Source: Candidatus Eiseniibacteriota bacterium (GTDB lineage Bacteria; Eisenbacteria; RBG-16-71-46). From it: a stretch of 64,000 nucleotides of DNA. Of the stretch, positions 21,037-42,119 are shown in pieces (within the stretch, counting starts at the first letter, position 1; the number at the start of each line of letters is the position of its first letter). The DNA lies in assembly GCA_963707915.1 (NCBI GenBank), contig OY970178.1, positions 3,328,001 through 3,392,000 of the forward strand, given 5' to 3'. The notes under the pieces were generated by a model that saw only the letters and a program-made list of their open reading frames with translations, was not told where the DNA came from and ran no database searches. Both the position numbers and the translations under genes were made by a program.

Positions 21037-21038
21037 GC

Positions 21039-24585: not shown

Positions 24586-24701
24586 GCAGCAACGCCTTTT
24601 CGTGGCAAACTATCTTCGCTCTTCAAACGATCAAGCTTGGGCAGCGGAAACCATGGAGTTTTCTTGAGCCAGGTTCGAACGTCCTCCACGATGGAGCACC
24701 A
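24577..24701 (-). repeat. Copy B of the serine recombinase C-terminal tail / att-like site
   Basis: Minus strand WCSIVEDVRTWLKKTPWFPLPKLDRLKSEDSLPRKGVAA* (24582-24701). Same 120-nt length as copy A and a shared CCCCTCTAGGCAGC end. Confidence 0.9.
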
Positions 24702-24767
24702 AGAACGAATCTTCGAACAAAAACACAAATCCAGCTTGATTCCATTAATCAGAGCTGAGTTCGAACT

Positions 24768-25631
24768 ATGAGACACAAGTTTCCAGACAACTTTGTAACT
24801 ATTGGCCATTTTGGCTTAGAGCAGCATTACTCAAAACATGCTCCACACGACATTCTTACAAAGTTACGCCATACATTAGGTTCCCTGATTGGATCTGAAG
24901 GAGACGTGGTGTATGTTTTTATCCTCATAAGAAAGCTTCTAGAGTTAGATAAACATAAACGAGTCTTTCCGACGTTGTCGCTGATATGTGATTGGATAGC
25001 ACATGTGCGGCTCGATAGAAATAGCACTGGTTACAAAATCATCGAGAATATAGATCGGGAACTCTATTTCAAATACGCCGTGCTTGATAAACGACCGTAT
25101 GATCGGAATAGGACAAAAGCACAGGAGCGGCATATAGAACGTCAACTTGCGGGCTTATGGACATTGCGTGGCGAGTTGAGATTCTTCTTACGCCATTATC
25201 ATCTCCCGATTACGATTGTAAATAAAACCCCATCATGGAACCGATTACGTCGTTTTCTGTTTAATGCTCTCGCGAATAGTCCCCTCACAGTTCAAACAGC
25301 TGACGATCTATTAGTAATAAAAAGCATCTCATTCACTTCTGTTTGGCACGAAGCTCAACCCCAATCATCCAGGGCAAGAAATCTATTTAACGATCCGCCA
25401 TACCCCAGATGTAGAATTCTAGTTAAGGATGGGATAATGCTGCCAGGAACTGAGCATATGAATCCAGAAGATGAGCAGATTATAGAGGTCTCATTAAAGA
25501 CTGTAGACATTCGCGACTTTATTTCCGAGGAGGAGTTTGTTAAACTTCAAAAGACGATGAAGGATCTTCCAGAACATTTCTTCAAAGACGATCCCAAAAC
25601 TACCGGAACCACCCGAACCAAATCATCTTAG
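24768..25631 (+). CDS. AT-rich hypothetical cargo protein
   Basis: 287-aa ORF, visibly the most AT-rich stretch in the window. Contains VYVFILIRKLLE...LICDWIAH. Its stop overlaps the recombinase stop. Confidence 0.7.
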   Translation: MRHKFPDNFVTIGHFGLEQHYSKHAPHDILTKLRHTLGSLIGSEGDVVYVFILIRKLLELDKHKRVFPTLSLICDWIAHVRLDRNSTGYKIIENIDRELYFKYAVLDKRPYDRNRTKAQERHIERQLAGLWTLRGELRFFLRHYHLPITIVNKTPSWNRLRRFLFNALANSPLTVQTADDLLVIKSISFTSVWHEAQPQSSRARNLFNDPPYPRCRILVKDGIMLPGTEHMNPEDEQIIEVSLKTVDIRDFISEEEFVKLQKTMKDLPEHFFKDDPKTTGTTRTKSS

Positions 25632-27187
25632 CTTTCAACGAGACGATCCAACCGAGGTAGTGGCAACCACTTATCTTTCTTTAACCAAGTTCGAACGTCG
25701 TCCCTTAAGGCGCACCAATTGCTAATGAGCCCTTGTCCTTCGATGAAGGAGAAGGGTTCGTTGGCTTTGTAGAGCGGTTCCTTGCCTTCGACCGCGAAGT
25801 TCGAAGCGACGGCCTGGACAATTTCCCGTCGTTGAACTCCGACCCCGCGCTCGAAGGCCGCCGCGCAGCGGTTCGTGAACTGGAAGAGCTCGGTCGCGCG
25901 CTGGAGGTACTCCTCCGGCTCGGTCGGCGGAACCTCGAGCTGCAGCTTGAGCTTTGCCTGTCGCTCCAAGATCTCAAGCCTTCGCTTCTCGAAGAGGTCC
26001 TCGTCTACCTGCCCGCGCAGCCGAAGCGTGAGCAGCGTTTCGCCCTCACGCAGGGACGCGCCGAGGGCCTCCTGGAGCGAGCGGTGTGAGGCTGTGTCGG
26101 TCACGGTCTCCGCCTCCAAAGTGTGCTTCAGGTTCTCCGTCACCCATCCGACCACTTCCTCCGGCACGGCCACGGCATGCAGGGTCTTCTGGATCGCCGT
26201 CTCGAAGTCCGGCTCCGGAATGCAGGTCGCATGCGGACAGGGCGTGCTTCTCCCAAGGCCATGACAGCGGTAGTACACGTAGGTTCGACCTGACTGCTTG
26301 CGGTGCTGCTCGCCGGTCAGAAGTCCGCCACACTTGCAACGCAGTAGCCCGCCGTAGGGGAACTCGTGACGCGCCGGGCGGGCGCGCCCTGGCCGACCAA
26401 GGATACCGGCCGCACGCTCGAACTCCGCCGGGGTGACCATCGGCTCATGGCCGCCGCGGTAGCTCTCACCGCTGCGCAGCTGGATGAGCCCCATGTAGTA
26501 GGGATTCTGGAACATCCGGTAGAGCATCGTGATGCACATCGGCCGGCCGCCCAGTCGCGCCGTCTTGCGCGTGCGGAAGCCCCACTCCTCGGTTGCCAGC
26601 TTGAGGATCTGCTTGGGGCGGAGGCTATCGGTGAGCACGAGGTCCCACATCTTGCGCACGAGCGTGAACCGCTCGGGGTCTTTCACGACGGTCTTGGTCG
26701 CATGGTCCTCGATGTACCCCAGGGGCGGGCGGAAGTTCGGCCAGCCGCGCTGGAACCGCGCACGGTTGCCGCGCCGCACGTTTTGCCGCAGATCGTCGAT
26801 GAACTTGGTGGCGATGCCGAGCTCGAAGTTGCCCATGAAGCGGTCATTGCCGTCAGCGGTGTACGTCCGATCCGAGGTGATGACGGTGAGCTTGTGGTCG
26901 GCCAGCGCTTGCAGGACCCGGCCGGTGTCGGCGTGGTTGCGCGCCAGCCGGTCGAGCTTCCAGCACAGCACGGTCGCGATCTCGCCCTGGGACACGCGGC
27001 GCATCAGTTGATCGAAGACCACGCGGCCCGGAGCTTTAGCCGAGCGCGACTCGGAGAGGATCTCCGCGACCTGGTGCCCATGGCGCAGCGCCAGGAGTTT
27101 GAGCTCTTGGACTTGGGAGTCGATGGAGAGGACCTGCCGATCCTCGGATTCGCTGGATTTCCTAGCGTAGATGACACATTGCGGCAT
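25628..27187 (-). CDS. Large serine recombinase (resolvase + recombinase + Zn-ribbon/coiled coil)
   Basis: YARKS (catalytic Ser), ESRSAK, KLDRLARN, PLGY, NPYYMG, GLLRCKCG and YYRC motifs. Confidence 0.95.
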   Translation of the reverse strand: MPQCVIYARKSSESEDRQVLSIDSQVQELKLLALRHGHQVAEILSESRSAKAPGRVVFDQLMRRVSQGEIATVLCWKLDRLARNHADTGRVLQALADHKLTVITSDRTYTADGNDRFMGNFELGIATKFIDDLRQNVRRGNRARFQRGWPNFRPPLGYIEDHATKTVVKDPERFTLVRKMWDLVLTDSLRPKQILKLATEEWGFRTRKTARLGGRPMCITMLYRMFQNPYYMGLIQLRSGESYRGGHEPMVTPAEFERAAGILGRPGRARPARHEFPYGGLLRCKCGGLLTGEQHRKQSGRTYVYYRCHGLGRSTPCPHATCIPEPDFETAIQKTLHAVAVPEEVVGWVTENLKHTLEAETVTDTASHRSLQEALGASLREGETLLTLRLRGQVDEDLFEKRRLEILERQAKLKLQLEVPPTEPEEYLQRATELFQFTNRCAAAFERGVGVQRREIVQAVASNFAVEGKEPLYKANEPFSFIEGQGLISNWCALRDDVRTWLKKDKWLPLPRLDRLVES

Positions 27188-27225
27188 AGAGGTCTAGGTA
27201 GTGATGCCTCAAGTTCGAAACGCAG

Positions 27226-27432
27226 TCAAGAGGGAGGACCTTCGAACTCGCGGGGTTTCCTTGAAGAGGTGGCCTGGAGGATGGTCCAGCCGAGGGAGAG
27301 AAGTTGAATCGCCTTGGCCCACGCCTCCTCGCGCGTGAGCTCCAGCCCGCGCGTGCGCCGCAAGATGTCGCGGAGGCGGTCCACCTCCGCTTCGGTCAGG
27401 CCAAGCGCGAAGCGTTGCGTTCGAGCATCCAT
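27226..27432 (-). CDS. Small protein directly upstream of the recombinase (candidate directionality factor or regulator)
   Basis: 68-aa ORF co-oriented with the recombinase, with a paralog at 24367-24585. Confidence 0.7.
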   Translation of the reverse strand: MDARTQRFALGLTEAEVDRLRDILRRTRGLELTREEAWAKAIQLLSLGWTILQATSSRKPREFEGPPS

Positions 27433-27596
27433 GCAACCATGATCGCGCAGGAGTAGCGACCGGCGTAGGGGGGAGGACGTCCACAGGGCGAGCTTCGCTG
27501 TGCATAGCGACAATCGAATCCCTCTTCCACAGACATGCACAGTTTGCGCACCTCCACCCCCCTACAACGATTCCCTGGCAGGACTATCGTGGAAGC

Positions 27597-27878
27597 ATGT
27601 TGGTGCAATACACCAAGCGAACGTGGCGAAACCGGCCGCGCTTCCCCAACAAGATCCGCGAGTACCGCCTCAAGGCCGGCATCTCGCAGAGCAAGCTCGC
27701 CGCCCTGCTCGGCCGCGGCCGCAACGCGGTCTCGTCCTGGGAGCGTGGACTGTCGCTGCCAAACGTGCCGCGTCTCCTACGCATGGCGAAGATCCTCGGC
27801 ACACTCTCCGAGGCGCTCTACTTCCAGTTCTACTCCACCCAGGGAGCAGATGGTGAGCTCAGCGGCACTGCGGCATGA
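27597..27878 (+). CDS. Cro/CI-type HTH transcriptional regulator
   Basis: IREYRLKAGISQSKLAALLG...VSSWERG..LP. Confidence 0.88.
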   Translation: MLVQYTKRTWRNRPRFPNKIREYRLKAGISQSKLAALLGRGRNAVSSWERGLSLPNVPRLLRMAKILGTLSEALYFQFYSTQGADGELSGTAA

Positions 27879-28360
27879 GGGAGCGTCTCTTGCGCTGGTT
27901 CATGGCCCACGCCAACGGTCGCGGCGTGGTGCTGGGCCGAAGCGAGGTCATGGAGGCGGAGCTGGACGCAGCGTCTGACGTGCTTCAACAGGAGCTCACA
28001 GCATTGGAGCGGGAGGGAGTCGTCGAGATCATCGCCCCGCTACCGTTCCTTGTCCTTCGACTCAAGAAATGGTCTGGCAGGGGCCAACAAAGCACCTTTG
28101 CCTATAGCTCTCTGCTATCAAACAATCAATTGATTGAAAGCAACAGCCATAGGCACGATCCACTCCTCCACGAGATCCTCGAGACACTCGGGGAGACGGA
28201 CGTGAAGGCGTTCGCCCCGGTGCTCGAGCACTACTCCCCGCAGATCATTCGCACCGCTCTGAGAAGGGTCCGCCGCGCCCGCGGCATCCGGAAGAGCCGC
28301 ACCGCGCTCTTTCGCCACCTGCTCCCGCGACTCGCGCAAGCCGAACCCGAGCGCAACTAG
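27875..28360 (+). CDS. Hypothetical wHTH protein, replication-initiator-like
   Basis: wHTH-like N-terminus. The C-terminal IRKSRTALFRHLL motif recurs in the next gene. Confidence 0.6.
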   Translation: MRERLLRWFMAHANGRGVVLGRSEVMEAELDAASDVLQQELTALEREGVVEIIAPLPFLVLRLKKWSGRGQQSTFAYSSLLSNNQLIESNSHRHDPLLHEILETLGETDVKAFAPVLEHYSPQIIRTALRRVRRARGIRKSRTALFRHLLPRLAQAEPERN

Positions 28361-28368
28361 CCCTCCCC

Positions 28369-28899
28369 ATGTCCTCGCTCCAACCCATCACCCTTACCCT
28401 CGATCGCCGCATCCTCGAGCATCCGCGGGCCTACCACCTGCGACGCATGCGCGCGGGACTCTGGCTCTACCTCGACCTCTTGGCCCGGCTCCCGGCCGAC
28501 GCTGAGACGTTCGAGGTGGAGCCCGCGGCGGTCGGGCGGGACATGGGGCTCCCGGAGGGCACGGTCCGCTCCTGGCTCGGGCACCTGCGAAAGGCCGGCT
28601 ACCTCGACGCCGTGCGCCTCAACGGCAAGGTCCGGGTGACGATCAAACGGGCCGCAGCGCCGGAGACCCCGGCAGAACCCCCGACGCCGACACGCTTCTT
28701 CACGGTCGCCAAGCTCCAGCGAGCGCTCGGCGAGCCGGGCAACGCCGAGGCCTTCGAGGCCGCGCTCAGCCTCTACCCGGACGACGGTCGTGAAGCGCGC
28801 CCTCGCCGGCACGCTGGCGGTGCCCGAGACCCAGATCCGTCGCTCACGCACCGCGCTCTTTCTTTACCTCCTACAACACGCCATGCCCAAGAAGACTGA
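28369..28899 (+). pseudogene. Paralogous wHTH protein, frameshifted near 28788
   Basis: GLWLYLDLL...TVRSWLGHLRKAGYL. The C-terminal IRRSRTALFLYLL continues in another frame. Confidence 0.6.
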
Positions 28900-29400
28900 C
28901 ACCATCCTCGCCCTCGATCCCGGTCTCCGCGACCTCGGCTACGCCGTGCTCCACGGCCGCCGCCTCGTGGCCAGCGGCGTGCTCGCGCTGCGGCGCGTCC
29001 CGAAGGCAGAACGTCTCGCGCACAGCGCGCAAGCACGTGCGCACGTGGCTGCGAACGCACCGTCCGCAGCGTCTGGTCGTCGAGAAGACCTACCGCCATC
29101 CGGTGCCGTGGCTCGATCGAGCTCCACCGGCTCACGCGCAGGCCCGGAACCTCGCCACCCGCCAGCACACCGCCTTCGCCATGTACTCGCCGCAGACGCG
29201 TCCGCGCGACCGTCGCCGGCAACGGCAAGGCCAAGAAGCCCGAGGTCGCCATCGCCGTCGCGCATCCGCTTCCCGCAGCTCCGGGTCTACCTCACGCAGG
29301 ACCGGCGCTGGAAGGAAGCGTACTGGCAGAACATGTTCGACGCGTCGCGCTGGCGCTCCATCACCAAGCAGCGACGCAACCGCCCTCCCGCAGCCGGTGA
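28883..29400 (+). pseudogene. RuvC-like Holliday junction resolvase, multiple frameshifts
   Basis: ILALDPGLRDLGYAV, then LVVEK, then YWQNMFDA in shifting frames. The end is approximate. Confidence 0.7.
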
Positions 29401-29515
29401 TCCGGCCGACCCTGGCGCCTCCGCCTTGCCGAGCGCCACTGTCTCGGAAGGGGTCCGCAAGGGACCTCCGACGAGCAGCCCTCGGGAGGGCATTTGATTC
29501 ACTACACACTCACCC

Positions 29516-30025
29516 ATGAACACACCAAGACCATCCTCGGCATCGACCCCGGCACGAAGGAGATGGGCATCGCCGTGCTTCGCGGCCGAAAGCTGCTCGC
29601 GTACGGCGTGCACACGCTCCGCAACGGCGAGCGGCCCTACGACGTGATCGGCCAGGCCCGGCGGGTCGTCTTGGAGTACCTCGAGCGCTATGCCCCGGAG
29701 GTGGTGGCGATCGAGGCGCCGCTGCATGTTGCCGACCAAGCGCGCGGCGATCCTCTCGGTCATCGCGCAGGAGCTGCGACAGAGGGCGAATGAACTCGGC
29801 CTCGAGGTCCTTGAGCTCACGCCGCAGGAGGTGCGGCAGCGGGTAGTCGGGAACCCGCGCGCGACCAAGATTGACGTCGCGGAGGCGCTGGTGGCACGGG
29901 GGTTCGAGGAGCTCAAGGATCTTGTGCCAAAGCGACCGACCCGGGCAGCCTTGGGACTCAGGCCGGGCCAGAAGTACTGGCTCCACATGTTCGATGCGCT
30001 GGGGCTCGCTTGGGCCATCACCTGA
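29516..30025 (+). pseudogene. Second RuvC-like resolvase, frameshifted
   Basis: ILGIDPGTKEMGIAV, VAIEAP, GNPRATK and YWLHMFDALGLA across frames. Confidence 0.72.
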
Positions 30026-30281
30026 GTGCCCCCACGTGCAGCGCGCGAATGACCTATTGCGGCAGAGCACGATTGCGACTAGTGTACAGTCGTATACGGT
30101 TTGCTCTCAGCCCACTTTGTCGGGATCCGCTGCGCCCCCTATGCCTAAGGGCAACCCTAGTGATCTCACGAGCAACGAGGGCCGCCATGCCTGGTTGCGT
30201 CAGTCCCTTCATGGTTGCGCTCACGCCCTCTAGCCGGGCGGTGGACCGAGTTACGGCGAGCGGCCCGGAGGTTCCCCACCC

Positions 30282-31721
30282 ATGAGCACCGTGATGCTCG
30301 TCGACCTGCCTTACGCGCGCGGCGAGTACAACGAGCCGCTGGCGGTTGAGTTTTTGGCTGCGCAGTTAGTCGAGCGCACGGGGGCAACTACCGCAATCCT
30401 CGCCTTAGATCGGGGCTTCTCGGCCTCCGTCCTGACCGAGGCCATTCTGACTCTGAGGCCGGATCTTGTCGCGCTGTCCACGAAGCTCGATAGTATCACG
30501 CTGCTCCCCGAAGTTGGCGACGCGGTGCGGCGCAGCGGAATCAGATGCAGTGTGGTCATCGGTGGCATCGCTGCGACAATTGCACCAACCGAAACATTGG
30601 CGGCGCTAGGAATGCCTGAGGCAATCTGTGTTGTTGGAGAAGGCGAGGATGTCCTGTGTCAGGTCGTCCTCGGACTCGGTGCGGAAGGCCCAACGGATGG
30701 CGGGGAGAGTACCCCCTTGGGGCCCAACAGAGTCATCGGATCACCGCCCTCTTCCAGGTACCCACTCAGCATGCCCGCCGACCGGAGTTTGCTTGGCCGT
30801 ACCATCGCCTCGCGCGGCATCGCGCGTTGCGAAGCAAGCAGAGGTTGTCCGTGGGGCAAGTGCACTTTTTGCGTCATCGGGCGGAAGTACGGTGCGACCA
30901 CTTGGCGACCCCGTCCCCCAATCAGAGTAGTAGAAGAACTTGACCGAATTGCCGCGATGGGGGTGGAGATGGTGTACTTCACCGACGAGGACTTCATCGG
31001 CGGTGATGCCGAACGCGCGCTGTGGATTGCTGAACATGTACTAGAGCGCAAGGCCGAGGGACGCATCCCCGAGACCTTCCGACTTTGGTGTTCGACTAGC
31101 GTGCTGAACATCCTCGGTCGCTATGACGACCCTGCACGCGTTCGCGCGGCACTCGTCAGGCTCAAGACCGCCGGACTCGCGGGTGTGTTCCTCGGCGTCG
31201 AATCGGGTAGCCCCACCCAACTCAAGCGCTATGCAAAGGGTGCAACCGTCGCCCAGAACGAAATGGCCCTCTGCATACTTGAGGAGATGGGGTTGGAAGC
31301 GGACGTCGGCTTCATCATGTTCGACCCCTTTGTTACCATCGAGGAGCTTGCGGAGAACACGGCCTTTATTCGCCGAACCAGTCTCAAGGATGGGTTCTCT
31401 CGCTTGGGGAAGCCGGTTCGGCTCACGCCGTATACGAGCCTTACGTCCCGTGCGATACGGCATGGGCTTTGTCGAAGTCAACTCTCCATTGATACGCTAT
31501 CGTACCCGTACCACTTCGCTGACGCACGCACCGCGGCGGTCTTCGAAGAGTTCTCGACTTGGGAGCAACGCACGGCACCTCGGGCCTATGACCTCCAATC
31601 GGTTCTTCGCGCAAACGGCTACACCACCGAGGGCGCATATAAAGCCAGGAGCGACCTCGTGGCAATGCGTAGGGAGCAGCTCGACAAACTCGCTGAGCTT
31701 ATCGAGCTGGCCAAGCGCTAG
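30282..31721 (+). CDS. B12-binding radical SAM protein
   Basis: EPLAVEFLAA, IGGIAAT, VGEGE, SRGCPWGKCTFC, FTDEDF, GVESG and GFIMFDP motifs. Confidence 0.9.
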   Translation: MSTVMLVDLPYARGEYNEPLAVEFLAAQLVERTGATTAILALDRGFSASVLTEAILTLRPDLVALSTKLDSITLLPEVGDAVRRSGIRCSVVIGGIAATIAPTETLAALGMPEAICVVGEGEDVLCQVVLGLGAEGPTDGGESTPLGPNRVIGSPPSSRYPLSMPADRSLLGRTIASRGIARCEASRGCPWGKCTFCVIGRKYGATTWRPRPPIRVVEELDRIAAMGVEMVYFTDEDFIGGDAERALWIAEHVLERKAEGRIPETFRLWCSTSVLNILGRYDDPARVRAALVRLKTAGLAGVFLGVESGSPTQLKRYAKGATVAQNEMALCILEEMGLEADVGFIMFDPFVTIEELAENTAFIRRTSLKDGFSRLGKPVRLTPYTSLTSRAIRHGLCRSQLSIDTLSYPYHFADARTAAVFEEFSTWEQRTAPRAYDLQSVLRANGYTTEGAYKARSDLVAMRREQLDKLAELIELAKR

Positions 31722-31924
31722 CGATGCCACCTCGGCCGCAACAAGCCAACCCCGTAGGCCTCGGGGGCAGCAACCTCGATCACCTTGTTCGACGCATGCG
31801 GTGTGCGGTACGGTATGCAGTTGCCGTTGAGGGAAATGACTGGGGCGCGGCGACTTCGCTGCAAGACGCCAGGTTCGTCCGAGCAATCGGACCCCCAGCC
31901 TAGACTGCGGAACGCAAGCAAGAC

Positions 31925-32317
31925 TCACTCTAAGTACGTGATCTCTCCCTCTTTGTAGCCAGGGGCGAGCACGGTGAAGAAGCACAAATCCGAATCGCCT
32001 AGATTTCGGATGCTCAGCGCGTCACCAGATTTCACATAGATAAAGACTGGATGCTCTGGATCAGCAGTGAATGGGCCGCTCACTGAAGTCGCGGTCCTTA
32101 CCTCGAACTGGCCACCGAAAAGGAAGAGGACTTCGTCGCCGCTATTGGGTCTATTCTGAAAGTGGTGACTTTGTTGCTCTCTCGGTCGAACCCGAGCAAA
32201 GACAGCTGTCGCATTAGGCGTATCACTCAGAATTCTACCGTGGAGGTTCTCCTCCTGAAAGAACTCCTCGGGTCGCTCGGTGACTCTGATGATTTGTGTT
32301 TCGATCATTTCGCTCAT
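31925..32317 (-). CDS. Cupin-domain protein
   Basis: HHFQ...GDEVLFLFGG...SIRNLGDSDLCFFTV cupin pattern. Confidence 0.75.
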   Translation of the reverse strand: MSEMIETQIIRVTERPEEFFQEENLHGRILSDTPNATAVFARVRPREQQSHHFQNRPNSGDEVLFLFGGQFEVRTATSVSGPFTADPEHPVFIYVKSGDALSIRNLGDSDLCFFTVLAPGYKEGEITYLE

Positions 32318-32424
32318 ATAGCGCCCACCGGGTTATTGGCTAAAGTGGCCTGTACAGGAGAAGGCTAGCACAAACGCTCTCGCGCCGCCACTCGGCAATC
32401 ACGGTCAGAGGAGGATGACAGCTT

Positions 32425-33252
32425 ATGCGCCCAGCCGATATCGAACAAGTCCTCGCACTGAACCGCGCCCATTGGGAGGCAGCCAGCAAGGTCCACGCAT
32501 CATCTCCATATTATCAAGTGGATGCCGTTCGTGCTGGAGGCTGTAGCCTAAGTGAGGTCGAACTCGCCGAACTCGGCAGCGTTGCTGGCCAGAGAGGTCT
32601 CCACGTCCAATGCGGCATTGGCTTGGAGACAATCTCGCTTGTTCGGCTCGGAGCTGCGATGACGGGGGTCGACTTCGCACCGTCGGCCGTCGAGCAAGCT
32701 CAGATGCTAGCTAACGAATGCGGTGTGTCGGCTGAGTTCCGTGTGGCCGACGTACTTGATCTTAAGAACATATCACCTGAACCGTTTGACTTCATCTACA
32801 CGTCCCACGGAGTGCTTAGATGGCTACCAGCACTTGGCACGTGGGCGGCGGGACTCTATCGCCACTTACGGCCGGGAGGGCTACTGTATGTGTTCGAGAT
32901 ACACCCGTTGGTGTACCGAATTCGCAAGCTCGATGCGACGAGTGTCGTGTTAGGAGGCAACTACTTTCTTGAGAGCCCCCGGGTCGTCAGACTTGCCTCT
33001 ACGCATGCGGGTAATATAGCCCTTGGCGATGCCATGCGTGTGGTTCACACGGATTGGTCCATAGGTACGCTTCTGACGCACCTCCTCGACGCGGGGCTCT
33101 GCCTTCAGAGCTACCATGAGCATGGGGGATGCAGCTATAATAGGAACGGGTGGTTTCCAAGGCGGGTTGGAGGACTGTGGCACCCCGTAGCCGAGACACT
33201 GCCAATGCCGTTGTCGTTCTCCCTGAGACTCCGCAGACCAACGGCCGTCTAG
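32425..33252 (+). CDS. Class I SAM-dependent methyltransferase
   Basis: LHVQCGIGLE, GVDF, FDFIYTSHGVLRW and LRPGGLLYVFEIHP motifs. Confidence 0.88.
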   Translation: MRPADIEQVLALNRAHWEAASKVHASSPYYQVDAVRAGGCSLSEVELAELGSVAGQRGLHVQCGIGLETISLVRLGAAMTGVDFAPSAVEQAQMLANECGVSAEFRVADVLDLKNISPEPFDFIYTSHGVLRWLPALGTWAAGLYRHLRPGGLLYVFEIHPLVYRIRKLDATSVVLGGNYFLESPRVVRLASTHAGNIALGDAMRVVHTDWSIGTLLTHLLDAGLCLQSYHEHGGCSYNRNGWFPRRVGGLWHPVAETLPMPLSFSLRLRRPTAV

Positions 33253-33316
33253 GCTGCGGACGCCCGCGTGACGGAGTCTCAGATGTTGCCGGGCATGGTC
33301 GAGCGTTACATAGGAG

Positions 33317-34057
33317 GTGCGCTACGTGACCTCAGCACGAGATGAATTGTTCGTGGTGACGGGAGGGACTCAAGGGATTGGCCTTGCCATAGCGCAGGCG
33401 GCAGCTGCCAGTGGCCGGTCCGAGAGCGTTATCGTGGTCTCAAGGCATCCGGGGGTCGAGGGAGATGGTTCCTGGGAACATGTGGCTGCGGACCTGTCGA
33501 CGCGTCCCGGTATTGATGCGGCGATAGCAGGCATACGCTCCTATCAGCGCCCGGTGCGCGTCCTCGTGAACAACGCCGGGGCCATATTGGAGAACAACGC
33601 GTTTAGCGCGCTCACCTGGGAGACGATGTTGGCGAGTATTGTCCTGCATTCGATCGCGCCCGTCCTCTTGACGCGAGGTCTCGAGAAGGAGCTCAGGGCT
33701 GCTCAGGATGCGAGCGTGATCAATATCGGGTCAATTTATGGCGGAATACCAGATCCGGAGGTGTTCGCCTATGTGTGCGGGAAGGCGAGCCTTCCTATTG
33801 TGACGGAAATGATGGCGAGAGCACTTGCTCCAGACGTCCGCGTCAACTGCGTCCAGCCTGGGCATATTGAGACCGCCATGACACGGGCGGCCACCGCTGA
33901 ATTCCGGCAACACGTGATTGCGCATACTGATGTGCAGAGGCTTGGGGAGCCATCTGAAGTCGCGGCCGTCGTGATGTTTCTAGCGTCGGCAGCGTCAGGG
34001 TTTATTAACGGGACGAGTATACGCCTGGATGGCGGGTATTGGGGCGGGGTGTCGTGA
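33317..34057 (+). CDS. SDR family oxidoreductase
   Basis: TGGTQGIG, NNAG, NIGS, YxxxK (YVCGK) and VNCVQPG motifs. The start may be 33326. Confidence 0.9.
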   Translation: MRYVTSARDELFVVTGGTQGIGLAIAQAAAASGRSESVIVVSRHPGVEGDGSWEHVAADLSTRPGIDAAIAGIRSYQRPVRVLVNNAGAILENNAFSALTWETMLASIVLHSIAPVLLTRGLEKELRAAQDASVINIGSIYGGIPDPEVFAYVCGKASLPIVTEMMARALAPDVRVNCVQPGHIETAMTRAATAEFRQHVIAHTDVQRLGEPSEVAAVVMFLASAASGFINGTSIRLDGGYWGGVS

Positions 34058-36396
34058 GCGCCGACACGCTTGGCGCTACGCTGTCGAAGGTAGTGGACAC
34101 CTTGCGTGTCGCGGCCACAACCGACTCCTCTGGGGGGGCGGCATGGTGGGGGCTCGCCGAGAGAGCGGCAGCTGTGATTGGCGTGACCGCAATGGGTGTG
34201 CTCGCCGGGGCATGGCTGGGTGTGAAGTGGGTGATAAGGAAGTTGGCGGAGAGGTCGGATAGGAAGGTGTTCGGCGGCGACTACTTGATACTGCGTCGGG
34301 ACGCTCAGCGAGATGGGAGCTTCGATACCAAGGGGCTTACGAGTCTTCGGACCGCCATCCGGGTTCGATCTGACGAACTCTCACAGATGGTTCGGAGGAG
34401 CGTGCAGGAAGAGATGCGGCAGGAGACCAGTCGCTTGGCAGCTGGTTCCGCGTCCGTGTCATATGGGGAGATCTTGGCCGGGGCGCCTCTCTTGATGCCA
34501 TGCGGAACCGTGACACTAGATGGCACGCCGCGTCTCGAGGTGGCGGGCCTCGTTAAGGAGTCAGCGGAAGCCAGGATTCCAATCGACCGATCCGCCCCAG
34601 GATATCAGCGAACGCTTCTCCTCGGAAAAGCTGGGGAAGGTAAGAGCCTATTGTGCCTTCAGGCCAAATACAAGCTTATGAACTCCCAGTCAGGGCAAGC
34701 ACCATGGTGCCTAGTGATCTCTGCTCGCGACTTTGAGGGTGATCGCCCACACGACTCGGATATTGGGTCAAGAGAGTGGTGTGGGCGTCGGATAGCCGAC
34801 CGATACGTGGGGGGGGAGCCATCGCCCCTTGAGGTGCGGTTGCTAAGCGAATTGGCGGATAGCAGTGCCGTGCTGATTGTCGATGGATTGGACGAGATCG
34901 GCCAGCTTCTCACCTATGCAGAGTTGCAGTCGCTATTGTCGTCGTGGCTGTTTGCGCGAGTGGCGATTGCCACCGCGCGGTTGTCGTTCTACTATTCCCA
35001 CCTGCTTTCGGCGCGACCTCTTGACGGCATGAGACTCCTGCTTCTCGGCACTCCCACCGAGGCCTCGCGAAAGGCGTTTGTTAGAGCACTCTGTGGGCGG
35101 CAAAGGAACGCGGACCCGGGCAAGGTTTGCGCGCTGGTGTTGGACATGCTAGGCCGGCTGCCGAGTATGGCGGAGTTGACGAAGACGCCTCTGCTCCTGC
35201 TGATGGCTGCAGAGGTAGCCGCGCAGGCACCGGAAGGGCCACCGTTCCTTGACGCGATAGGTGTCTACGAGCGGTTTGTTCAGGAATTCGTGACGAAGGA
35301 AGTTGAGAGGAGCCACAAACGAATCTCCCCTACCCTAATGAACCATCTCGTGGAGGATGTCGCGTGGCTTGCCTTTAGCAGTCGGAATACTCAGGCAGGG
35401 CTGCCGCGGGTTGGTCAGGCGGGTCTCAGGGCGTGTATTGCCCAGACGTTCGGCTCAGGCGATCAAGACGCGCTCGATCACATCGCCAATGCCCTGTCCA
35501 CGTCTGCATTGCTCTCTGTGCCTCCCAGCGATCGCCGTGGTGGAGGTGTTGTCTTCAACCATGAGACGTTCGCTGAATTCCTTATTGCGCGGCGCCTCTA
35601 CGCGTGGCTATTGGGAGACCGCAGTACGGGATCGGACTTCTTTGAACACATCGAAACGCCTGAGATTTCGTTCTACGTCAAAGAATATCTCGCGAGACTC
35701 CGTGCAGAGAGCGAGGCCCTTCGGGCTGGGCGCGTCCGTCTGTCGCAGCTAGTGGAAGACTTGTCGCGCGCTCGACAGAGTGCGACAGATGAGACGAAGG
35801 CGCGCTTGGCTGCGTTTGCACTTGGGCAAGCCGCGTACTATCTGGGCATGGTAGCCGGCCCAGAGGAGCGGAAGACGCTGAGGGAGTTCGCTCACGGGGA
35901 AACAGACTTCTGGGTGAGGAGGGCGGCGGCGATAGGTCTGGCCATGGGAGGCGACGCATCTGACTACCATGCTTTGATTGATGAGATGCGCGGCGGGATT
36001 GAAGCGGGCGACTACACCTTGTCTCGAAAGAGCATAGCAATGGACCTTGGGTTCTACGGTGACCAGCCATTTGATCGCCTTGACCCGAGCCGCGATTGTG
36101 GTGGGGAGGCCTGTAGGCGGCTGGTGACTCGAGTTGCGCACCAGGCGCGATTCGCCGTGGAATTCGCGAACTGGCGGAGCGATCTCTTTGACCTCGTCTA
36201 TCTAGGCAAATACCGATCTGAGTCAAAGAGAGAGTTTGAATCCGTTCTCCGAGAAGTACGCGGAAGTCTGGAAGAGTCGCTTGCTGTTATTGAGGCGACT
36301 TCTGAGAACTCCAAGTATCCTGAGATCAGGGAAGTGCGCGAGATGCTCGCTTGCTTCGATGTAGTGCCGGGGGCAGCTGGCGGAGACTTACCTTAG
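34054..36396 (+). CDS. NACHT/STAND NTPase with N-terminal TM helix and C-terminal HEAT-like helical region
   Basis: Walker A GKAGEGKS, Walker B LIVDGLDE, TPLLL and FNHETFAEF. GTGA overlap with the SDR stop. Confidence 0.85.
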   Translation: MSADTLGATLSKVVDTLRVAATTDSSGGAAWWGLAERAAAVIGVTAMGVLAGAWLGVKWVIRKLAERSDRKVFGGDYLILRRDAQRDGSFDTKGLTSLRTAIRVRSDELSQMVRRSVQEEMRQETSRLAAGSASVSYGEILAGAPLLMPCGTVTLDGTPRLEVAGLVKESAEARIPIDRSAPGYQRTLLLGKAGEGKSLLCLQAKYKLMNSQSGQAPWCLVISARDFEGDRPHDSDIGSREWCGRRIADRYVGGEPSPLEVRLLSELADSSAVLIVDGLDEIGQLLTYAELQSLLSSWLFARVAIATARLSFYYSHLLSARPLDGMRLLLLGTPTEASRKAFVRALCGRQRNADPGKVCALVLDMLGRLPSMAELTKTPLLLLMAAEVAAQAPEGPPFLDAIGVYERFVQEFVTKEVERSHKRISPTLMNHLVEDVAWLAFSSRNTQAGLPRVGQAGLRACIAQTFGSGDQDALDHIANALSTSALLSVPPSDRRGGGVVFNHETFAEFLIARRLYAWLLGDRSTGSDFFEHIETPEISFYVKEYLARLRAESEALRAGRVRLSQLVEDLSRARQSATDETKARLAAFALGQAAYYLGMVAGPEERKTLREFAHGETDFWVRRAAAIGLAMGGDASDYHALIDEMRGGIEAGDYTLSRKSIAMDLGFYGDQPFDRLDPSRDCGGEACRRLVTRVAHQARFAVEFANWRSDLFDLVYLGKYRSESKREFESVLREVRGSLEESLAVIEATSENSKYPEIREVREMLACFDVVPGAAGGDLP

Positions 36397-37223
36397 TCGC
36401 GGCGCGTTCTGCGTGAGAGAGCCGGAAGCCACTGATTGAACTCGTCGACTTGCTCTTGAGTGGCCCCCATATCCGCGAGCCGACTCACAAAGCTCGCGAA
36501 CATGGAGAGGACGGTGTCTATGGAAGGCGGCGTGCTCAAATAGTCGGCACCAGGCAATACGATGTCCGCCTTGAGGAGGACCTTGGTGAGCTTCGTCTCG
36601 ACAAGATGCGGATCAAAAGGGGCGATGTTGACGCAGTGAAGGTCAAGAGCGATCATGATAGTGCGGAATCTGCTGAGATAGGTGTGAAAGCCCGTGGCTT
36701 CGTGGCGGTGAATGCATTTCACCATATTGCGGAGGATGGGGAACGTCTCGTAGAAGATGAGGTTGATAAGGTCCCGACGCCAGGATGAGTTGGTGGCTAC
36801 AAAGTCTGGGAAGTGCTGGGCGAAGTATGCCGCACCGGCCTCGTTTAGAAAGACCATCTTGCGAGCCATTGGCAGGGGCGCAAAGGTAAAGGGACTGTTG
36901 AAGAACACTTCAGCCGACGAGCTGCTGCGTTGAAGAACGGTAATGCGGAGGCCGAACCCACGCGAGAGATACGGAGCAGGGACGACAGCATCCGGCATGG
37001 CGATGCTAACATGTTGACAGAACGCCTTCATGACGAGGATGAGGTCGGCATCGTCTGAGAATGCAAATAGATCGAGGTCCGACAGGGGGTCAGTTTCAGC
37101 CCGAGCGGAGGAGCCGCCCACTGCGACTGCCTGCACCTGAGGAATGGTGGTTAGGCAGTGAAGAAGTGAATCGAAAAACGGTGTGTGCATGGTATCCGTG
37201 CCCTCAGTGGAAGAGTGCCTCAA
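36393..37223 (-). CDS. Pol-beta-like nucleotidyltransferase (aminoglycoside/lincosamide NTase-like)
   Basis: GGSSARAETDPLSDLDL followed by a helical C-terminal domain. The start may be 37190. Confidence 0.78.
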   Translation of the reverse strand: MRHSSTEGTDTMHTPFFDSLLHCLTTIPQVQAVAVGGSSARAETDPLSDLDLFAFSDDADLILVMKAFCQHVSIAMPDAVVPAPYLSRGFGLRITVLQRSSSSAEVFFNSPFTFAPLPMARKMVFLNEAGAAYFAQHFPDFVATNSSWRRDLINLIFYETFPILRNMVKCIHRHEATGFHTYLSRFRTIMIALDLHCVNIAPFDPHLVETKLTKVLLKADIVLPGADYLSTPPSIDTVLSMFASFVSRLADMGATQEQVDEFNQWLPALSRRTRRD

Positions 37224-37261
37224 GAGTATATGCCACGCTGGGCCTCGTGGGTGGGTAGCCT

Positions 37262-37465
37262 AGACGCGGGCCTGTTCAAGTAGGCCCGCAAGGAGATGTT
37301 CGCCCGAGGCCACAGCGTGATCCTCCAGCCCCCACGGGGAGGACGGTCGCCTAGGCAGGGTCAAACGCGAGATAGACACGTCGAAAGGCGTCGTCGATGG
37401 CATCGGCGACGAGGTGCTCGAGTGTTCGAGACCCGGGCGAAGGCCCGCGCCCTCCGTGACTTAGC
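37262..37465 (+). pseudogene. Degenerate remnant of the 38965 recombination gene
   Basis: GAGACCCGGGCGAAGGCCCGCGCCCTCCGTGAC matches the sequence near 39251-39283. Upstream segments align loosely with 39045-39200. Confidence 0.7.
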
Positions 37466-37480
37466 CAAAGTCGGCCCCAT

Positions 37481-38938
37481 CTACCGAACCAACTGAGATA
37501 GAAGGACGGCCTGTGGTTCACCTCGCTGCCAACATTCCTGCAAAGCGAGCAACTGCTCCCGACCGATGATATGGATTCTGTGCTCGCGGGCGAACCGCAG
37601 GGTTGCGCTCGGGACATGGCTCTGAGGCTTCGGATGAAAGAACGCGAGGTAAGTCCCGAGGAACCCGGGCGTGACAACTGAACTCGCAATCGACCGCGCC
37701 CGCGCCGTTAAGACCTCGAGCATCTCGGTAGTGGGGGCGATGACCTTGCACTCCGCGACGAGGATGGCGTCCTCGCTCAACTCCGCGACAATGTCGGGGG
37801 CGTGGTCGGGGCTCCTGAAACCATAGCGAACTGCGGGAATGCCGCAGAGTTGCAGGAGTGTCACCACGTAGTGCTCAAACCCATCAGCGCCCCGATGCTG
37901 CTTGGCGCCATCTAGCAGCCCGGTTAGCCACTTCCCATCGGGGTCAATGAGTGCGTAAGCTTGGCTGCTAAGCTTCGGAATCCCAACGCGGGTCTCGTCC
38001 ACGGTGTCTTCGCCCACCATCAGCCTGAGCTCCCAGACACCCTCAAGCCGTTCTAGGGTCGTGTCGAGACGCCAGCAATCACCATGGTTTGTGAAGTCGC
38101 CTCGGCTAAATCCGAGCGGCCGGTCCGAGGAGTCATGGATTGCGTAGAGTTGAATCGGCAAACTGGAGTCGGTTGTACTCAGCTCGACCTGTAGCCGGGC
38201 ATCCAGAAGGCCCAGGCTGGCCGACTGGATACGGCAGTAGGTCGGGATGAGGACCTCGAGGAGAGCAGGGTCATTGCCAGGCAAGGCGAATGGAGCGTCG
38301 GGATTGCCCAGGAACCTACACAACTGCCGGTAACTACCCAGCTTTCCATCAGACCATGCCAATAGCCGTCGGTCGAGGGCCGCACGTACGTCCTCGCCAG
38401 CAACCGTGATTATGTTCTCACCTGAGCCCAGTAGGCTGTGAGTCGGCCAACCGGTCGTTTCCCGGCCGGGCCGGAAGTACTCGAAGAAGCTCCAATGGTA
38501 CGGCGTACCGTCGGGGCGGACGAGGCGTAGATCGGAGCCGCGGAGCGGCATCCTCCCGTCGGCGAGCCCAAGAAGAGCTTCATCAAGTTCTCGTAGCGAG
38601 AACCACCTCCGACAGGCGAAGTACTGCCCAACATCGAGGTTGGCGCTCCAGCTTGCATCCGGGGCGGCGGGAGAGAGCACGATGCGGCAGTGGAGGTTTC
38701 GAAGCTCCAAGCCATTCCGAGCGGCGAGGCAGGACACCCGGGCTCCTTCGTAGGAGCGCTTCGCCATCTCGGTCGATAGTTGGTCAAACACCGATGGACT
38801 CACCCCAAGCACCCCCTGCTCATGTGGCGGTCTCACTTTCCACAGCACGTCAGCCGTACGCGCCTCCACCCATCTTCCTGTGCCCGCACAGAGTTCTATG
38901 CTGACACAGGCTGGATCAACTGTCACCGATAGCCCCAC
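37481..38938 (-). CDS. Hypothetical protein with C-terminal PD-(D/E)xK restriction-endonuclease-like domain
   Basis: FEHYVVTLL...APDIVA...VAECK near the C-terminus. The start is uncertain. Confidence 0.65.
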   Translation of the reverse strand: MGLSVTVDPACVSIELCAGTGRWVEARTADVLWKVRPPHEQGVLGVSPSVFDQLSTEMAKRSYEGARVSCLAARNGLELRNLHCRIVLSPAAPDASWSANLDVGQYFACRRWFSLRELDEALLGLADGRMPLRGSDLRLVRPDGTPYHWSFFEYFRPGRETTGWPTHSLLGSGENIITVAGEDVRAALDRRLLAWSDGKLGSYRQLCRFLGNPDAPFALPGNDPALLEVLIPTYCRIQSASLGLLDARLQVELSTTDSSLPIQLYAIHDSSDRPLGFSRGDFTNHGDCWRLDTTLERLEGVWELRLMVGEDTVDETRVGIPKLSSQAYALIDPDGKWLTGLLDGAKQHRGADGFEHYVVTLLQLCGIPAVRYGFRSPDHAPDIVAELSEDAILVAECKVIAPTTEMLEVLTARARSIASSVVTPGFLGTYLAFFHPKPQSHVPSATLRFAREHRIHIIGREQLLALQECWQRGEPQAVLLSQLVR

Positions 38939-38964
38939 CCGCCCCCTGACAAAGGAGCCTTCCC

Positions 38965-39690
38965 ATGAAGGCTCAAGAACACACCCGCACGGTCGAAGTC
39001 CACGACCGCGCGGGCAACGTCGTCGGCTCCAAGGAGGTCGTGCTCTACGCTGGCCTGCTCAACCAGGCCCACGAGGAGGGACTCTCCAAGGTCCGCACCT
39101 CGATCCTCCAGATCCCCACGGAGGAGAACGGCCGCCTCGCCATCGTCAAGGCCGAGGTCGAGACCGCCGAAGGGCCTCTTCGAAGCGCTCGGCGATGCCT
39201 GTCCCGAGAACGTCGATGAGTTCCTCGCCCCGCACCTGATCCGCGTGGCCGAGACCCGGGCCAAGGCCCGCGCCCTCCGTGACGCCGTCAACGTCGGCGT
39301 CGTCTCCTTCGAGGAGTTGGACGGCGTCAGCCTGGACCGGGACTCAAGCCCCGGATCGGGTGCCCGACCGCCGCCGCGCTCCCCGCGCCACGCCGAGCAA
39401 CGGCTCCGGCTCCCGCGCGCCCGCGCAGCAACGGCCACGAGCCGACCGCCCCGGTCGGCAACGGCACCGAGCCCATGACCGAGGCCCAGCGCCGCTACCT
39501 GTTCCGCCTCATGGCGGGGCAGGGCTACCAGAAGGAAGCCGCCGAGGACCGCCTGAAGGACCTCTTCGAGGTCTCGGCACTCACCGAGATCACGAAGGTG
39601 GCCGCGACGAAGATGATCGACGAACTCCTGAACTCCGCCCCCGGCAACGGGGATGGCGGGAATGGAGCCGACGCGCGTCCTCTCCGTTAG
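38965..39690 (+). pseudogene. Putative single-strand annealing (Rad52/ERF-like) protein, frameshifted
   Basis: YAGLLNQAHEEGL, AETRAKARALRDAVNVG and MTEAQRRYLFRL lie in three separate ORFs. AAGGAG RBS. Confidence 0.6.
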
Positions 39691-40506
39691 CCAGGTCAAC
39701 GCCTACCTCGGCTGTCCCGCTCAAGTACCGCTTCCAGTACGTGGACAAGATCCCGAGACCCTGGCGGGTCGCCGCCATGGCCTTCGGCACGTCGGTCCAT
39801 GCCGCCGTCGAGTGGTTCCACCGGGAACGGCTCGCCGGCCGGCACGCCCGGAGCTGACCGAGGTCCTCCAGGTCTTCGACGCCGACTGGTACGCGCAGAA
39901 CGTGGAGCCGCTCGTCTTCTCGGAACGGGAGTCCGAAGGACTCTCTCGCCGAGAAGGGCCGCGCGATGCTCCAGCTCTACGTCGAGTCCGCGAACGGGAC
40001 GAAGCCGGTCGCGGTCGAGCAGCCATTCGAGCTGGACCTCGCCGATCCCGAGACCGGCGAACTGCTCGACGTGCGGCTCCGCGGCATCATCGACCTCGTG
40101 GAGGAGGGGGAGACGCTGGTCGATCTCAAGACCGCCGGCCGGACCCTCGAGCAAGGGGGCCTCGAACGGCACCTGCAGCTCTCCACGTACGCGCTCGCGT
40201 TCCTCCTCCTCCACGGCTCGCATCCCCAAGCTCCGGCTCGACATGTTGCTCAAGACCGCGAAGCCGCGGCTCGAGCGGCACGCCACCACCCGCACCGTCG
40301 AGGATCTCGGCTGGACCGCCCGGCTCATCCACGAGGTCGCGCCCGCGATCGAGACCGAGCACTTCTTCCCCAACCCGAGCTGGCGCTGCACCGAGTGCGA
40401 GTACTTCGCCCACTGCCAACAGTGGCGAGGGACCTGGCCTCGGCCTAGCGAGCAGCTCGTGACCGTCAGTGACGGGGAAGGTGTCGGCGAGTCCGCAGGC
40501 GCGTAG
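39662..40506 (+). pseudogene. PD-(D/E)xK RecB/Cas4-like exonuclease, frameshifted
   Basis: LSVSQVNAYLGCP, FGTSVH, RGIIDL...VDLKT, QLSTYA and CTECEYFAHC across frames. Confidence 0.8.
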
Positions 40507-40625
40507 GCCCTCAGGGGTCGTTGCGTGCTATCGGGGGCCACGGACGGCTTCTGAACCCGAGCGTCTGCGGCTCGTCGCACCTTCTCCTGTCTATCTCTCC
40601 AGTTCCTTCCATCCATCGGGGCTCC

Positions 40626-41103
40626 ATGCGTTCGCGCCTGGAGCCCTTCTTCTTTCCCGCCCCTGCATGGAGTCGTCCCGTGTACGTCTGCGAACTGACG
40701 AAGCGCCAGTATCGCGGCAAGAAACCGAGGGAGATCCGCGGGCCCGACGACGTCGTCGCGTTCGTCGGCCCGAAGCTCCGCCGCGAGCAGCGCGAGCACT
40801 TCCTCGTGCTGCTGTTGAACGCCCGGCATGAGGTCGTGGCCCGCGAGACCGTCTCGGTCGGGAGTCTCAACGCCTCGATCGTCCACCCGCGGGAGGTGTT
40901 CCGGCCGGCGGTCCTCGCTTCGGCCGCCGCGCTCGGTGCTCGTTCACAACCACCCCTCGGGTGACCCCGAACCCAGCGAGGAGGACCTCTCGATCACCAA
41001 GCGGCTCGTCGAGGCCGGGGAACTGCTCGGCATCGGCGTGCTCGATCACGTCATCGTCGCCAGCCGGGGTGTCGTCTCGCTCCGCTCGCGGCAACTGCTC
41101 TGA
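40626..41103 (+). pseudogene. radC: RadC-like JAB domain protein, frameshift near 40930
   Basis: [39 protein letters not shown] and VLDHVIV motifs. Confidence 0.85.
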
Positions 41104-41130
41104 ACCCGTCCACGAAGAAGGAAGTCCGTC

Positions 41131-41865
41131 ATGTCTGCAACGCTCGTCGTCCACCGCGGCGGATGGGAGGCCTCCAAGGCCGACCTGGCCGCCGTCCCCG
41201 TGCCTGAGCCCACCGAGAGCTACCACCCGGTGCCGTACGGCCGCTTCGTCGAGGAGGTCGAGCTGCACGTTCCGCGCTTCGGCCTCACGGTCCAGTCGTC
41301 AGCGTTCGCGCTCGCGCGGGAGGGAGGCCAGATGTTCGGCGTCCTGACCTGCGCGAACGGGCAAGCCGCCGCCGACTACGCTCTCGCGATCGGCGTTCGC
41401 AACAGCTACGACCGGAGCCTGGCGGTCGGACTCACGCTGGGCAGTCGCGTGTTCTGCTGCGATAACCTCGCCTTCTCGGGCGAGGTGACCATGCACCGCA
41501 AGCACACGGTCAACGTCTTCCGCGACCTGCCCGACCTGATCTACCGGATGCTCTTCGCAGGTCTCGTCGATGCGGGAGCGGACTGACGGCGAGATCGCGG
41601 CGATGAAGGTTCGCGAATTGCCGCCGGCGCAGGCGCACCACCTGATGGTCGAGGCGATCCGGGCGAACGTCCTGCCCGCGTCGCGACTGCCGAAGGTGAT
41701 CGAGGCGTGGGAGGAGCCGAGGCACGAGGAGTTCGTGCCTCGCACGGCCTGGTCGCTCTTCAACGCCTTCACCGAGGTGCAGAAGGCGCACACGCCCGCG
41801 GGCGCAGATGGAAGGGAGCCTCCGGCTCTCATCGCTCTTTCGGAGGGAGTTGTCCCTCAACTGAC
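41131..41865 (+). pseudogene. DUF932 family protein, frameshifted
   Basis: RNSYDRS, RVFCCDNL, HRKHT and TAWSLFNAFTE across frames. The end is approximate. Confidence 0.78.
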
Positions 41866-42119
41866 CCAAGTGGGCCGTCCAAGCGCGGACGGCCCATGAT
41901 TCTTGCTCCGAGATTCGCCTCAAGAGAGAGACCGCTAAGGAGCTCCTGCTGGCCATCTTGCCCTCGTTGAACTCCGGCAGCATGTCGGCCCCGGCTCGGT
42001 TGAGCGGGCTGGTCGCAAACTGTTACTGTAACCAGTAAGGCGTACCTCGCCGGGCCGCTCGTCGTAGGAGGCAAGCTGCAGCAGCGGCCCGTCGGCTTCT
42101 TGCGACGGGAGGGAACCCC

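Follow-up and report, generated by a model that had tools for sequence, protein, structure and literature searches.

Six genes in a mobile defence element

The 64,000-nt window analysed here, from contig OY970178.1 of a Candidatus Eiseniibacteriota bacterium, contains a cassette of six genes at 30282..37223. Our analysis concerns mainly three of its products: a B12-binding radical S-adenosylmethionine (SAM) enzyme related to the oxetanocin A enzyme OxsB, an ANT(6)-like nucleotidyltransferase (NTase) and an NLR-like NACHT protein. The genes and the mobile element that carries them are as follows:

30282..31721, + strand: B12-binding radical SAM enzyme, 479 aa, with CX4CX2C (C189, C194, C197); OxsB-like, without the OxsB N-terminal domain
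31925..32317, - strand: small cupin, 130 aa; no Pfam match; Atlas features 0.96 to Cupin_2 clusters
32425..33252, + strand: class I SAM-dependent methyltransferase, 275 aa; Pfam Methyltransf_11 E 9e-14
33317..34057, + strand: classical short-chain dehydrogenase/reductase (SDR), 246 aa; start probably GTG 33326; Pfam adh_short_C2 E 1e-32
34054..36396, + strand: NLR-like STAND protein (NACHT), 780 aa; from model, Foldseek and relatives
36393..37190, - strand: ANT(6)-like pol-beta NTase, 265 aa; GGS..R..D.D motif and profile matches
13211..58488, unstranded: host element, ~45 kb, bounded by 39-nt repeats of the 5' end of tRNA-Ser(CGA)

A preliminary description, made from the sequence alone, had reported six intact genes of lower GC content with overlapping ends, and this was borne out. 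All six open reading frames (ORFs) in 30282..37223 are free of stops, and that of the NTase reaches 37223 if started at an upstream TTG. The stop codon of the SDR gene overlaps the start of the NACHT gene as GTGA at 34054-34057, and the stop codons of the NACHT (TAG) and NTase (TAA) genes share 36393-36396, the gaps along the cassette being 203, 107, 64, -4 and -4 nt. The GC content of the six genes is 0.51-0.61, compared with a genome value of 0.72 and with 0.62-0.68 in three backbone genes; at third codon positions the values are 0.57-0.69 in the cassette versus 0.77-0.88 in three backbone genes. The split between strands (+,-,+,+,+,-) had been left out of that description. Because the genes occupy both strands, the cassette is not one operon, and only the methyltransferase, SDR and NACHT genes can share one transcript. 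A scan for promoters and terminators gave a chance-level result.

The family labels proposed earlier were also retained. The Radical_SAM and B12-binding domains score above the Pfam cut-offs, and the methyltransferase and SDR are clear. The NACHT, HEAT and NTP_transf_2 matches fall below the Pfam cut-off; the first is backed by an NLRC4 fold and the NTase by its motif and ANT(6) profile, and the cupin label has the Atlas feature search (0.96) as its sole source. Curated PADLOC and NCBIfam models gave only a generic methyltransferase match among the six proteins.

The cassette is carried by a mobile, tRNA-Ser-integrated defence element. The 39-nt repeats lie at 13211-13249 and 58450-58488, with a third copy at 9935-9973, and the tRNA-Ser(CGA) gene occupies 58450-58539; a tyrosine integrase (57436-58416) and a relaxase (56080-57186) were identified with Pfam at one end of the element. 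The remaining cargo includes two pairs of the cyclic-oligonucleotide-based anti-phage signalling system (CBASS) type, a type I restriction-modification system, a Dam-ParB-PRTase-CE run and a JAB-ThiF gene. Left of the cassette lies a RuvC-like gene. Right of the NTase a fragment of a backbone gene is duplicated (37419-37482 matches 39242-39305), and the site is therefore regarded as an insertion hot spot. The host genome encodes further B12-binding proteins and has a cobalamin riboswitch.

Kinship to OxsB and the nucleotidyltransferase partner

OxsB is the closest solved structure to the radical SAM enzyme (phmmer E 4e-25). A 17-sequence profile gave 209 bits for OxsB versus 59 for the next structure, and Foldseek also ranked OxsB at the top (TMq 0.75-0.81; pLDDT of the model 88.6). 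The enzyme combines a cobalamin-binding domain with a radical SAM domain bearing three cluster cysteines, which places it in class B, and shows a three-domain layout of B12 domain, barrel and helical C-terminus. Alignment to 5ul2 revealed the OxsB-type CX4CX2C motif and the SAM-binding E363, E436, K448 and I474, the roles of the OxsB residues being taken from the accessible part of PMC9204698. The enzyme belongs to a clade of shorter OxsB relatives, comprising at least 49 sequences from bacteria, archaea and two viral contigs, in which CX4CX2C, E436 and K448 are kept in 49/49, E363 in 47/49, I474 in 46/49 and K326 in 37/49. The enzyme is thus OxsB-like; without Asn186, Arg323 and the N-terminal domain of OxsB, it is not a member of OxsB itself. 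The clade was found in 2/381 genomes of one Clostridia order, but not in 205 other genomes of the host's own phylum or in GenBank phages. A radical SAM enzyme 70% identical to that of the window is encoded on a 12.4-kb contig (P0002).

The neighbourhoods of these enzymes were analysed in the best 84 (L001-L082, L152 and L153) of the loci fetched, which comprised 71 from genomes, 80 from metagenomes and two viral ones. In a Pfam scan of 36 loci of the well-supported clade (support 0.97; 98.7 in a second tree), an enzyme from a list of nucleotide-processing families (NTase, HD phosphohydrolase, NUDIX, MazG, dCTP deaminase, PNP, CYTH, nucleotide kinase, EEP and metallophosphoesterase) was found within two genes on either side in 15/36. 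The control consisted of 36 of 69 weak metagenome loci, chosen for length, minus four near-duplicates, and many of these were short non-B12 radical SAM genes; such an enzyme was present in 1/32, or in up to 4/32 if DHH, HAD and TatD were allowed. The thresholds for clade and control first differed, and at the control's 1e-6 threshold the clade count was 12/36 (p 0.002). The clade thus often adjoins nucleotide-processing enzymes. A relative on a Sphingobium plasmid has the gene order SurE-radical SAM-NUDIX, and a locus fetched after the list had been fixed (L176:3647-10103) contains PNP, an unknown gene, an OxsB-like radical SAM enzyme, cytidine deaminase, ThyX, TPR and NUDIX, a run that appears to be a pyrimidine-flavoured version of the module.

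The NTase of the cassette matched ANT(6)-Ib (profile E 3e-4) and the HalB core motif (E 1e-3), with no Adenyl_transf match in the Pfam scan. The radical SAM enzyme falls into a subclade of eight loci (L001, L016, L017, L019, L025, L026, L072 and L073), recovered in two trees (0.96; SH-aLRT 97.3), and an ANT(6)-like NTase lies within three genes or is fused in 6/8 of these versus 0/76 of the others. A profile built from the six NTases, with the window protein left out, matched no ORF in the other 76+2 loci, and among 21,059 ORFs of the genome it matched the window NTase only (33 bits, E 5e-8). Moreover, in L072 and P0015, two sequences that share 62% identity, the NTase is fused to the radical SAM enzyme. 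As judged from gene content, the NTase is a recurring partner of the radical SAM enzyme in this subclade. An NTase 86% identical to that of the window was found in P0287. No plasmid or viral match to the NTase was found, and it matches no cyclase model, whereas the two CD-NTases of the island do. The same NTase family is fused to a sugar-nucleotidyltransferase (PF00483) domain in P0282, P0284 and P0286.

The six NTase-bearing loci share a cassette of their own:

L001:7080-14291, L017:309-7445, L019:8692-16658, L026:8103-13420, L072:4592-9978, L073:7314-13835: sister cassette

It consists of genes for a ParB-like protein, the ANT(6)-like NTase, the OxsB-like radical SAM enzyme, a 440-aa protein, a 210-aa unknown protein and PycTM. 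A PycTM-type membrane effector is present in 6/6 loci (five by Pfam, one by clustering), a PycC-type cyclase stands beside the cassette in 3/6, and the ParB-like gene occurs in all six (ParB-CE matched in 5/5 tested, one above the cut-off). As a whole the sister cassette matches no PADLOC system. Its companion genes (ParB-like, unknown genes and PycTM) are absent from the window cassette, where the cupin, methyltransferase, SDR and NACHT stand in their place. The sister cassette of gut Clostridia is a strong candidate system, cleaner than that of the window. Its 440-aa protein, F10, may contain a cyclase domain (PDB E 0.06-0.7, Atlas 0.87), which we treat as a lead; it gave no significant profile match to the neighbouring PycC. 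A NUDIX-like fold shared by the F10 N-terminus and F12, noticed by eye, was unsupported when checked.

Among the other loci, L023:3353-12639 (and L024) places a clade member amid class I and class II lysyl-tRNA synthetase-like genes, together with a PLP (pyridoxal phosphate) decarboxylase, two dCTP deaminases, a methyltransferase and an S66 peptidase, and resembles a nucleotide-antibiotic cluster. Both viral contigs (L152:6193-11551 and L153:4343-11263) encode an OxsB-like enzyme; in L152 a second radical SAM gene with a weak pVip match lies upstream, and in L153 the enzyme gene adjoins capsid genes.

The NACHT protein and the possible functions of the locus

The NACHT protein has an N-terminal membrane helix (~39-57) followed by long helices, a NACHT domain, a winged helix and a helical, HEAT-like C-terminus. 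Its AlphaFold model (pLDDT 83) matched NLRC4 in Foldseek (E 2e-8), as well as NLRP3 and NOD2, although the Pfam NACHT score is 22.2 bits, under the cut-off of 26.7. The Walker A (GKAGEGKS) and Walker B (IVDGLDE) motifs are intact, and the GxGK and DE columns are invariant in 21 aligned rows. The earlier description of the protein as NLR-like is thus upheld. It has 21 full-length relatives, among them WP_157269875.1 and MCK9899243.1; 20 of the 21 were aligned at 27-43% identity, and an N-terminal hydrophobic segment is present in 18/21 aligned rows. Among 53 of the 150 listed NACHT matches, mainly long ones, whose N-terminal domains were scanned, we found a trypsin-like protease in 21, BTAD in three, and DUF4062, PNP, a kinase and a hydrolase in one each. 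Since relatives carry enzymatic effectors at this position, the membrane helix occupies the effector slot. The preliminary description had noted the absence of an obvious enzymatic effector; with its own effector slot the protein needs no outside effector, and this removes the earlier reason for linking it to the enzymes. From its sequence and model, it is a genuine NLR-like protein with a self-contained effector-sensor arrangement that may work alone. According to the accessible part of bioRxiv 2022.07.19.500537, the tested bacterial NACHT genes rarely occur in operons. Relatives were not found in viral contigs, plasmids or the 205 further genomes from the phylum; in two order samples, each of 401 genomes, the matches were confined to the NACHT domain, a word-index search returned the protein itself only, and there was no PADLOC or NCBIfam match.

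The remaining enzymes are less distinctive. The SDR has the TGxxxGIG, NNAG and YxxxK motifs, and its PDB matches are FabG-like proteins and alcohol dehydrogenases, which makes it a candidate aldehyde reductase. The PDB matches of the methyltransferase are generic small-molecule methyltransferases, and the cupin is possibly a passenger; the roles of all three are those we infer.

We give about an even chance to the reading that the radical SAM enzyme and the NTase form a module whose product, a modified nucleotide, serves in phage conflict, beside a self-contained NACHT. The stretch would then be cargo of mixed origin, inserted at a hot spot within a defence element, with the OxsB-type B12 radical SAM enzyme and the ANT(6)-like NTase as its core. 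As regards the substrate, product and role in defence that we infer, the radical SAM enzyme would act on the sugar of a (deoxy)nucleotide, abstracting a hydrogen and then rearranging or alkylating this sugar. The SDR may reduce the resulting aldehyde, a step for which the oxetanocin cluster relies on an enzyme of the host; the contraction of the sugar of dAMP, dADP or dATP by OxsB is followed by aldehyde reduction by a host dehydrogenase, according to the accessible parts of PMC13331322 and PMC7074753. The NTase would adenylylate or polymerise the product, either for detoxification or to form a signal, and the product would either poison replication or serve as a messenger in the conflict. The NACHT, anchored in the membrane, would be a complete sensor-effector able to act without the enzymes. 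The suggestion of nucleotide chemistry in a defence setting, made in the preliminary description, is now better supported than could have been known then, but its model is OxsB and not viperin.

Prokaryotic viperins carry out radical SAM chemistry on nucleotides and have been proposed to act in antiviral defence. The window enzyme differs from them in its B12-binding class and its cluster motif, and viperin membership was rejected, as no PADLOC pVip match was obtained for it. Pycsar is a further system for comparison, and Hailong and Panoptes are guard systems consisting of an NTase and a membrane effector; we know of no radical SAM component in any of these three. PycTM links the sister loci to Pycsar: they pair it with their NTase and radical SAM enzyme, and 3/6 also have a PycC-type cyclase. 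The window cassette has neither PycTM nor PycC. Membership in CBASS or Pycsar was rejected, as the cassette contains no PycC or CD-NTase cyclase with a cognate effector. The resemblance to Hailong consists of the weak match of the NTase core motif to HalB.

OxsB (oxetanocin A) and AlsB (albucidin) are non-methylating B12 radical SAM enzymes acting on dAMP, dADP or dATP, according to the accessible part of PMC13331322. OxsB, the one of the two compared directly, is the nearest to the window enzyme by sequence, profile and fold, with CX4CX2C, E363, E436, K448, I474 and K326 kept; unlike both, the window enzyme has an ANT(6)-like NTase partner and lies in a phage-defence element. The NACHT protein shares with the bNACHT proteins of the accessible part of bioRxiv 2022.07.19.500537 the effector-NACHT-helical sensor layout, the NLRC4-like fold, swappable N-termini and CBASS nearby, whereas it has a single membrane helix in the effector slot and belongs to a rare family (21 full-length relatives). 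KpAvs2-Avap1-Avap2, an operon with an anti-phage context, likewise combines a STAND sensor with a radical SAM protein. However, the effector of Avs2 is a nuclease, there is no report that Avap1 binds B12 or acts on nucleotides, and the linkage recurs across genomes, whereas that of the window was seen once (comparison limited to the accessible part of PMC11564622). Membership in Avs2 was rejected, as no Avs model or DUF6375 (Avap2) match was found among the six proteins.

The preliminary description had tied the enzymes to the NACHT sensor and had named co-occurrence of the six families as the check. Viewed from the radical SAM enzyme, this check fails: a tblastn search of the 84 loci with the window proteins revealed no second six-gene set, a NACHT profile run on the 3,990 ORFs of these loci, those of the window stretch among them, found no second copy, and the NACHT family and cupin matched in 0/84 loci and the methyltransferase and SDR in 1/84 each. 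Because the partners match so rarely, the six-gene set is not conserved, and the tie is left unsupported. The ten clade-bearing genomes gave no full-length NACHT match either, STANDs near the enzyme in other loci belong to other families, and the same NACHT and C-terminal module functions with many fused effectors. We therefore regard as rather doubtful a coupled system in which the NACHT would replace PycTM and sense or guard the enzyme-made nucleotide, whose loss or gain during infection would lead to membrane-level abortive death. Several observations speak for it: GTGA joins the SDR to the NACHT, with the methyltransferase upstream; a membrane effector is carried by 6/6 NTase-bearing sister loci, in place of which the window has a NACHT anchored in the membrane; giant P-loop or STAND-like proteins are encoded close to the enzyme in L005, L008 and L027; and KpAvs2 is a STAND protein needing its radical SAM partner Avap1 against some phages (accessible part of PMC11564622).

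Two further explanations can be considered. The genes could form a small nucleoside-antibiotic cluster of the oxetanocin or albucidin kind, directed against competing cells, in which the NTase would provide self-protection, as ANT does for aminoglycosides, and the NACHT would be a passenger. ANT(6) is indeed the best profile match of the NTase, LysRS-like genes occur together with dCTP deaminases and an S66 peptidase in the locus L023/L024, and in the accessible parts of PMC13331322 and PMC7074753 OxsB and AlsB both yield released nucleoside analogues and the oxetanocin cluster is without an aldehyde-reducing enzyme. Nevertheless, the cassette has no transporter or OxsA-like phosphatase, the closest loci contain phage-defence effectors (PycTM, ParB-CE-like), and the remaining cargo of the element is mostly anti-phage, so that we consider such a cluster quite unlikely. 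Little credence is likewise given to a chance mosaic of unrelated hot-spot genes, with the radical SAM enzyme as a B12 methylase or another tailoring enzyme of a non-nucleotide substrate, since OxsB is far nearer than any methylase structure and both the neighbour enrichment, with the later-fetched locus L176, and the NTase-radical SAM fusions speak against it. It would accommodate the mixed strands, the broken copy of a backbone gene adjoining the NTase (37419-37482 versus 39242-39305), the many clade loci that stand alone amid housekeeping genes (L007, L021 and L022) and the Lys at the Asn186 position, which is basic like Arg69 of TsrM (accessible part of PMC9204698).

The reading that we prefer, a radical SAM-NTase module acting on nucleotides, has to be weighed against a number of observations. 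At the cobalamin face Asn186 of OxsB is replaced by Lys (K68; Asn in 3/49 of the clade), and Arg323 of the Cys loop by Ile (I199; Arg in 0/49). The N-terminal domain of OxsB is missing, the match starting at OxsB residue 141 (479 versus 744 aa), and neither OxsA (HD phosphohydrolase) nor AlsA (second radical SAM) is found among the six genes. Because Asn186, Arg323, the N-terminal domain and OxsA are absent, the reaction may differ from ring contraction. As for the neighbours, the enzyme list was drawn up after the clade had been seen and the counts were made by hand; p rises to 0.05 with the generous control and to 0.07 once kin are collapsed by hand, 21/36 clade loci have no listed enzyme within two genes, and unrelated radical SAM genes often adjoin methyltransferases (7/32) and SDRs (3/32). 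The window NTase is distant from the partners' NTases (15-23% identity; 33 versus 319-454 bits), lies on the opposite strand 4.7 kb from the radical SAM gene and, if mere island cargo, would be expected at so short a distance by chance in about one case in five; the six NTase-bearing loci are, moreover, kin. Apart from the methyltransferase, with its generic match, none of the six proteins matches a curated defence model.

A bolder version, which we think improbable, is that the three-domain OxsB relatives, a scattered and mobile clade, supply immune signals in the form of nucleotides with a rearranged or alkylated sugar, which would escape recognition by phage nucleases and sponges. These would be finished by the ANT(6)-like NTase and read by a swappable membrane effector, PycTM in the sister loci and a membrane-anchored NLR here. 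If true, cobalamin radical chemistry would yield an immune second messenger, and an NLR would be gated by a self-made modified nucleotide. Our search of the literature, which covered mainly titles, found no link of OxsB relatives to phage defence, and Nicastro et al. (2023) might list such neighbourhoods; radical SAM is unmentioned in the accessible parts of PMC13581612 and PMC12704722. In the accessible part of PMC13331322, OxsB and AlsB are the only such enzymes named, and only two natural oxetane nucleosides are given. Members of the clade are candidate sources of new nucleoside chemistry, and they may represent a B12-dependent branch of phage defence that works chemically or through second messengers. 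Because the residue under the cobalt is changed, the clade could also help to settle the role of cobalamin in non-methylating radical SAM enzymes.

Other features of the element and its surroundings

Between two of the tRNA-Ser repeat copies lies a separate 3.3-kb unit (9935-13249), which encodes an AAA_21 ATPase (AriA/PtuA-like) and an unknown 292-aa partner; no integrase was seen in it. The two CBASS-type pairs are adjacent (17119-21668): pair 1 consists of a patatin and a CD-NTase (NCBIfam DS2_1/DS2_2 above cut-off), and in pair 2 a LexA-like gene is followed by the second CD-NTase and a 2TM effector. An overlapping run of a Dam-family methyltransferase, a ParB-domain protein and PRTase-CE is located at 42120-44796.

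The RuvC-like (29494-30025) and RadC (40521-41103) backbone genes are split across two frames, and the six cargo genes are intact; the splits represent either assembly indels in high-GC DNA or decay. Between the backbone-fragment copies at 37419-37482 and 39242-39305, a 485-aa orphan is encoded on the minus strand (37481-38938), with a PD-(D/E)xK-like motif near its end, noticed by eye, and no family match.

Finally, three copies of a 78-125 nt stretch, ~1 kb apart, occur at 23580-25717 and match the 3' end of a serine recombinase gene (25628-27187). An orphan gene of very low GC content (24768-25631, GC 0.42) lies between two of these copies, and a motif centred on GTTCGAAC is repeated on either side of the recombinase (23839-23861 and 27231-27253). 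The arrangement resembles a small array of cassettes or a stack of attachment sites.

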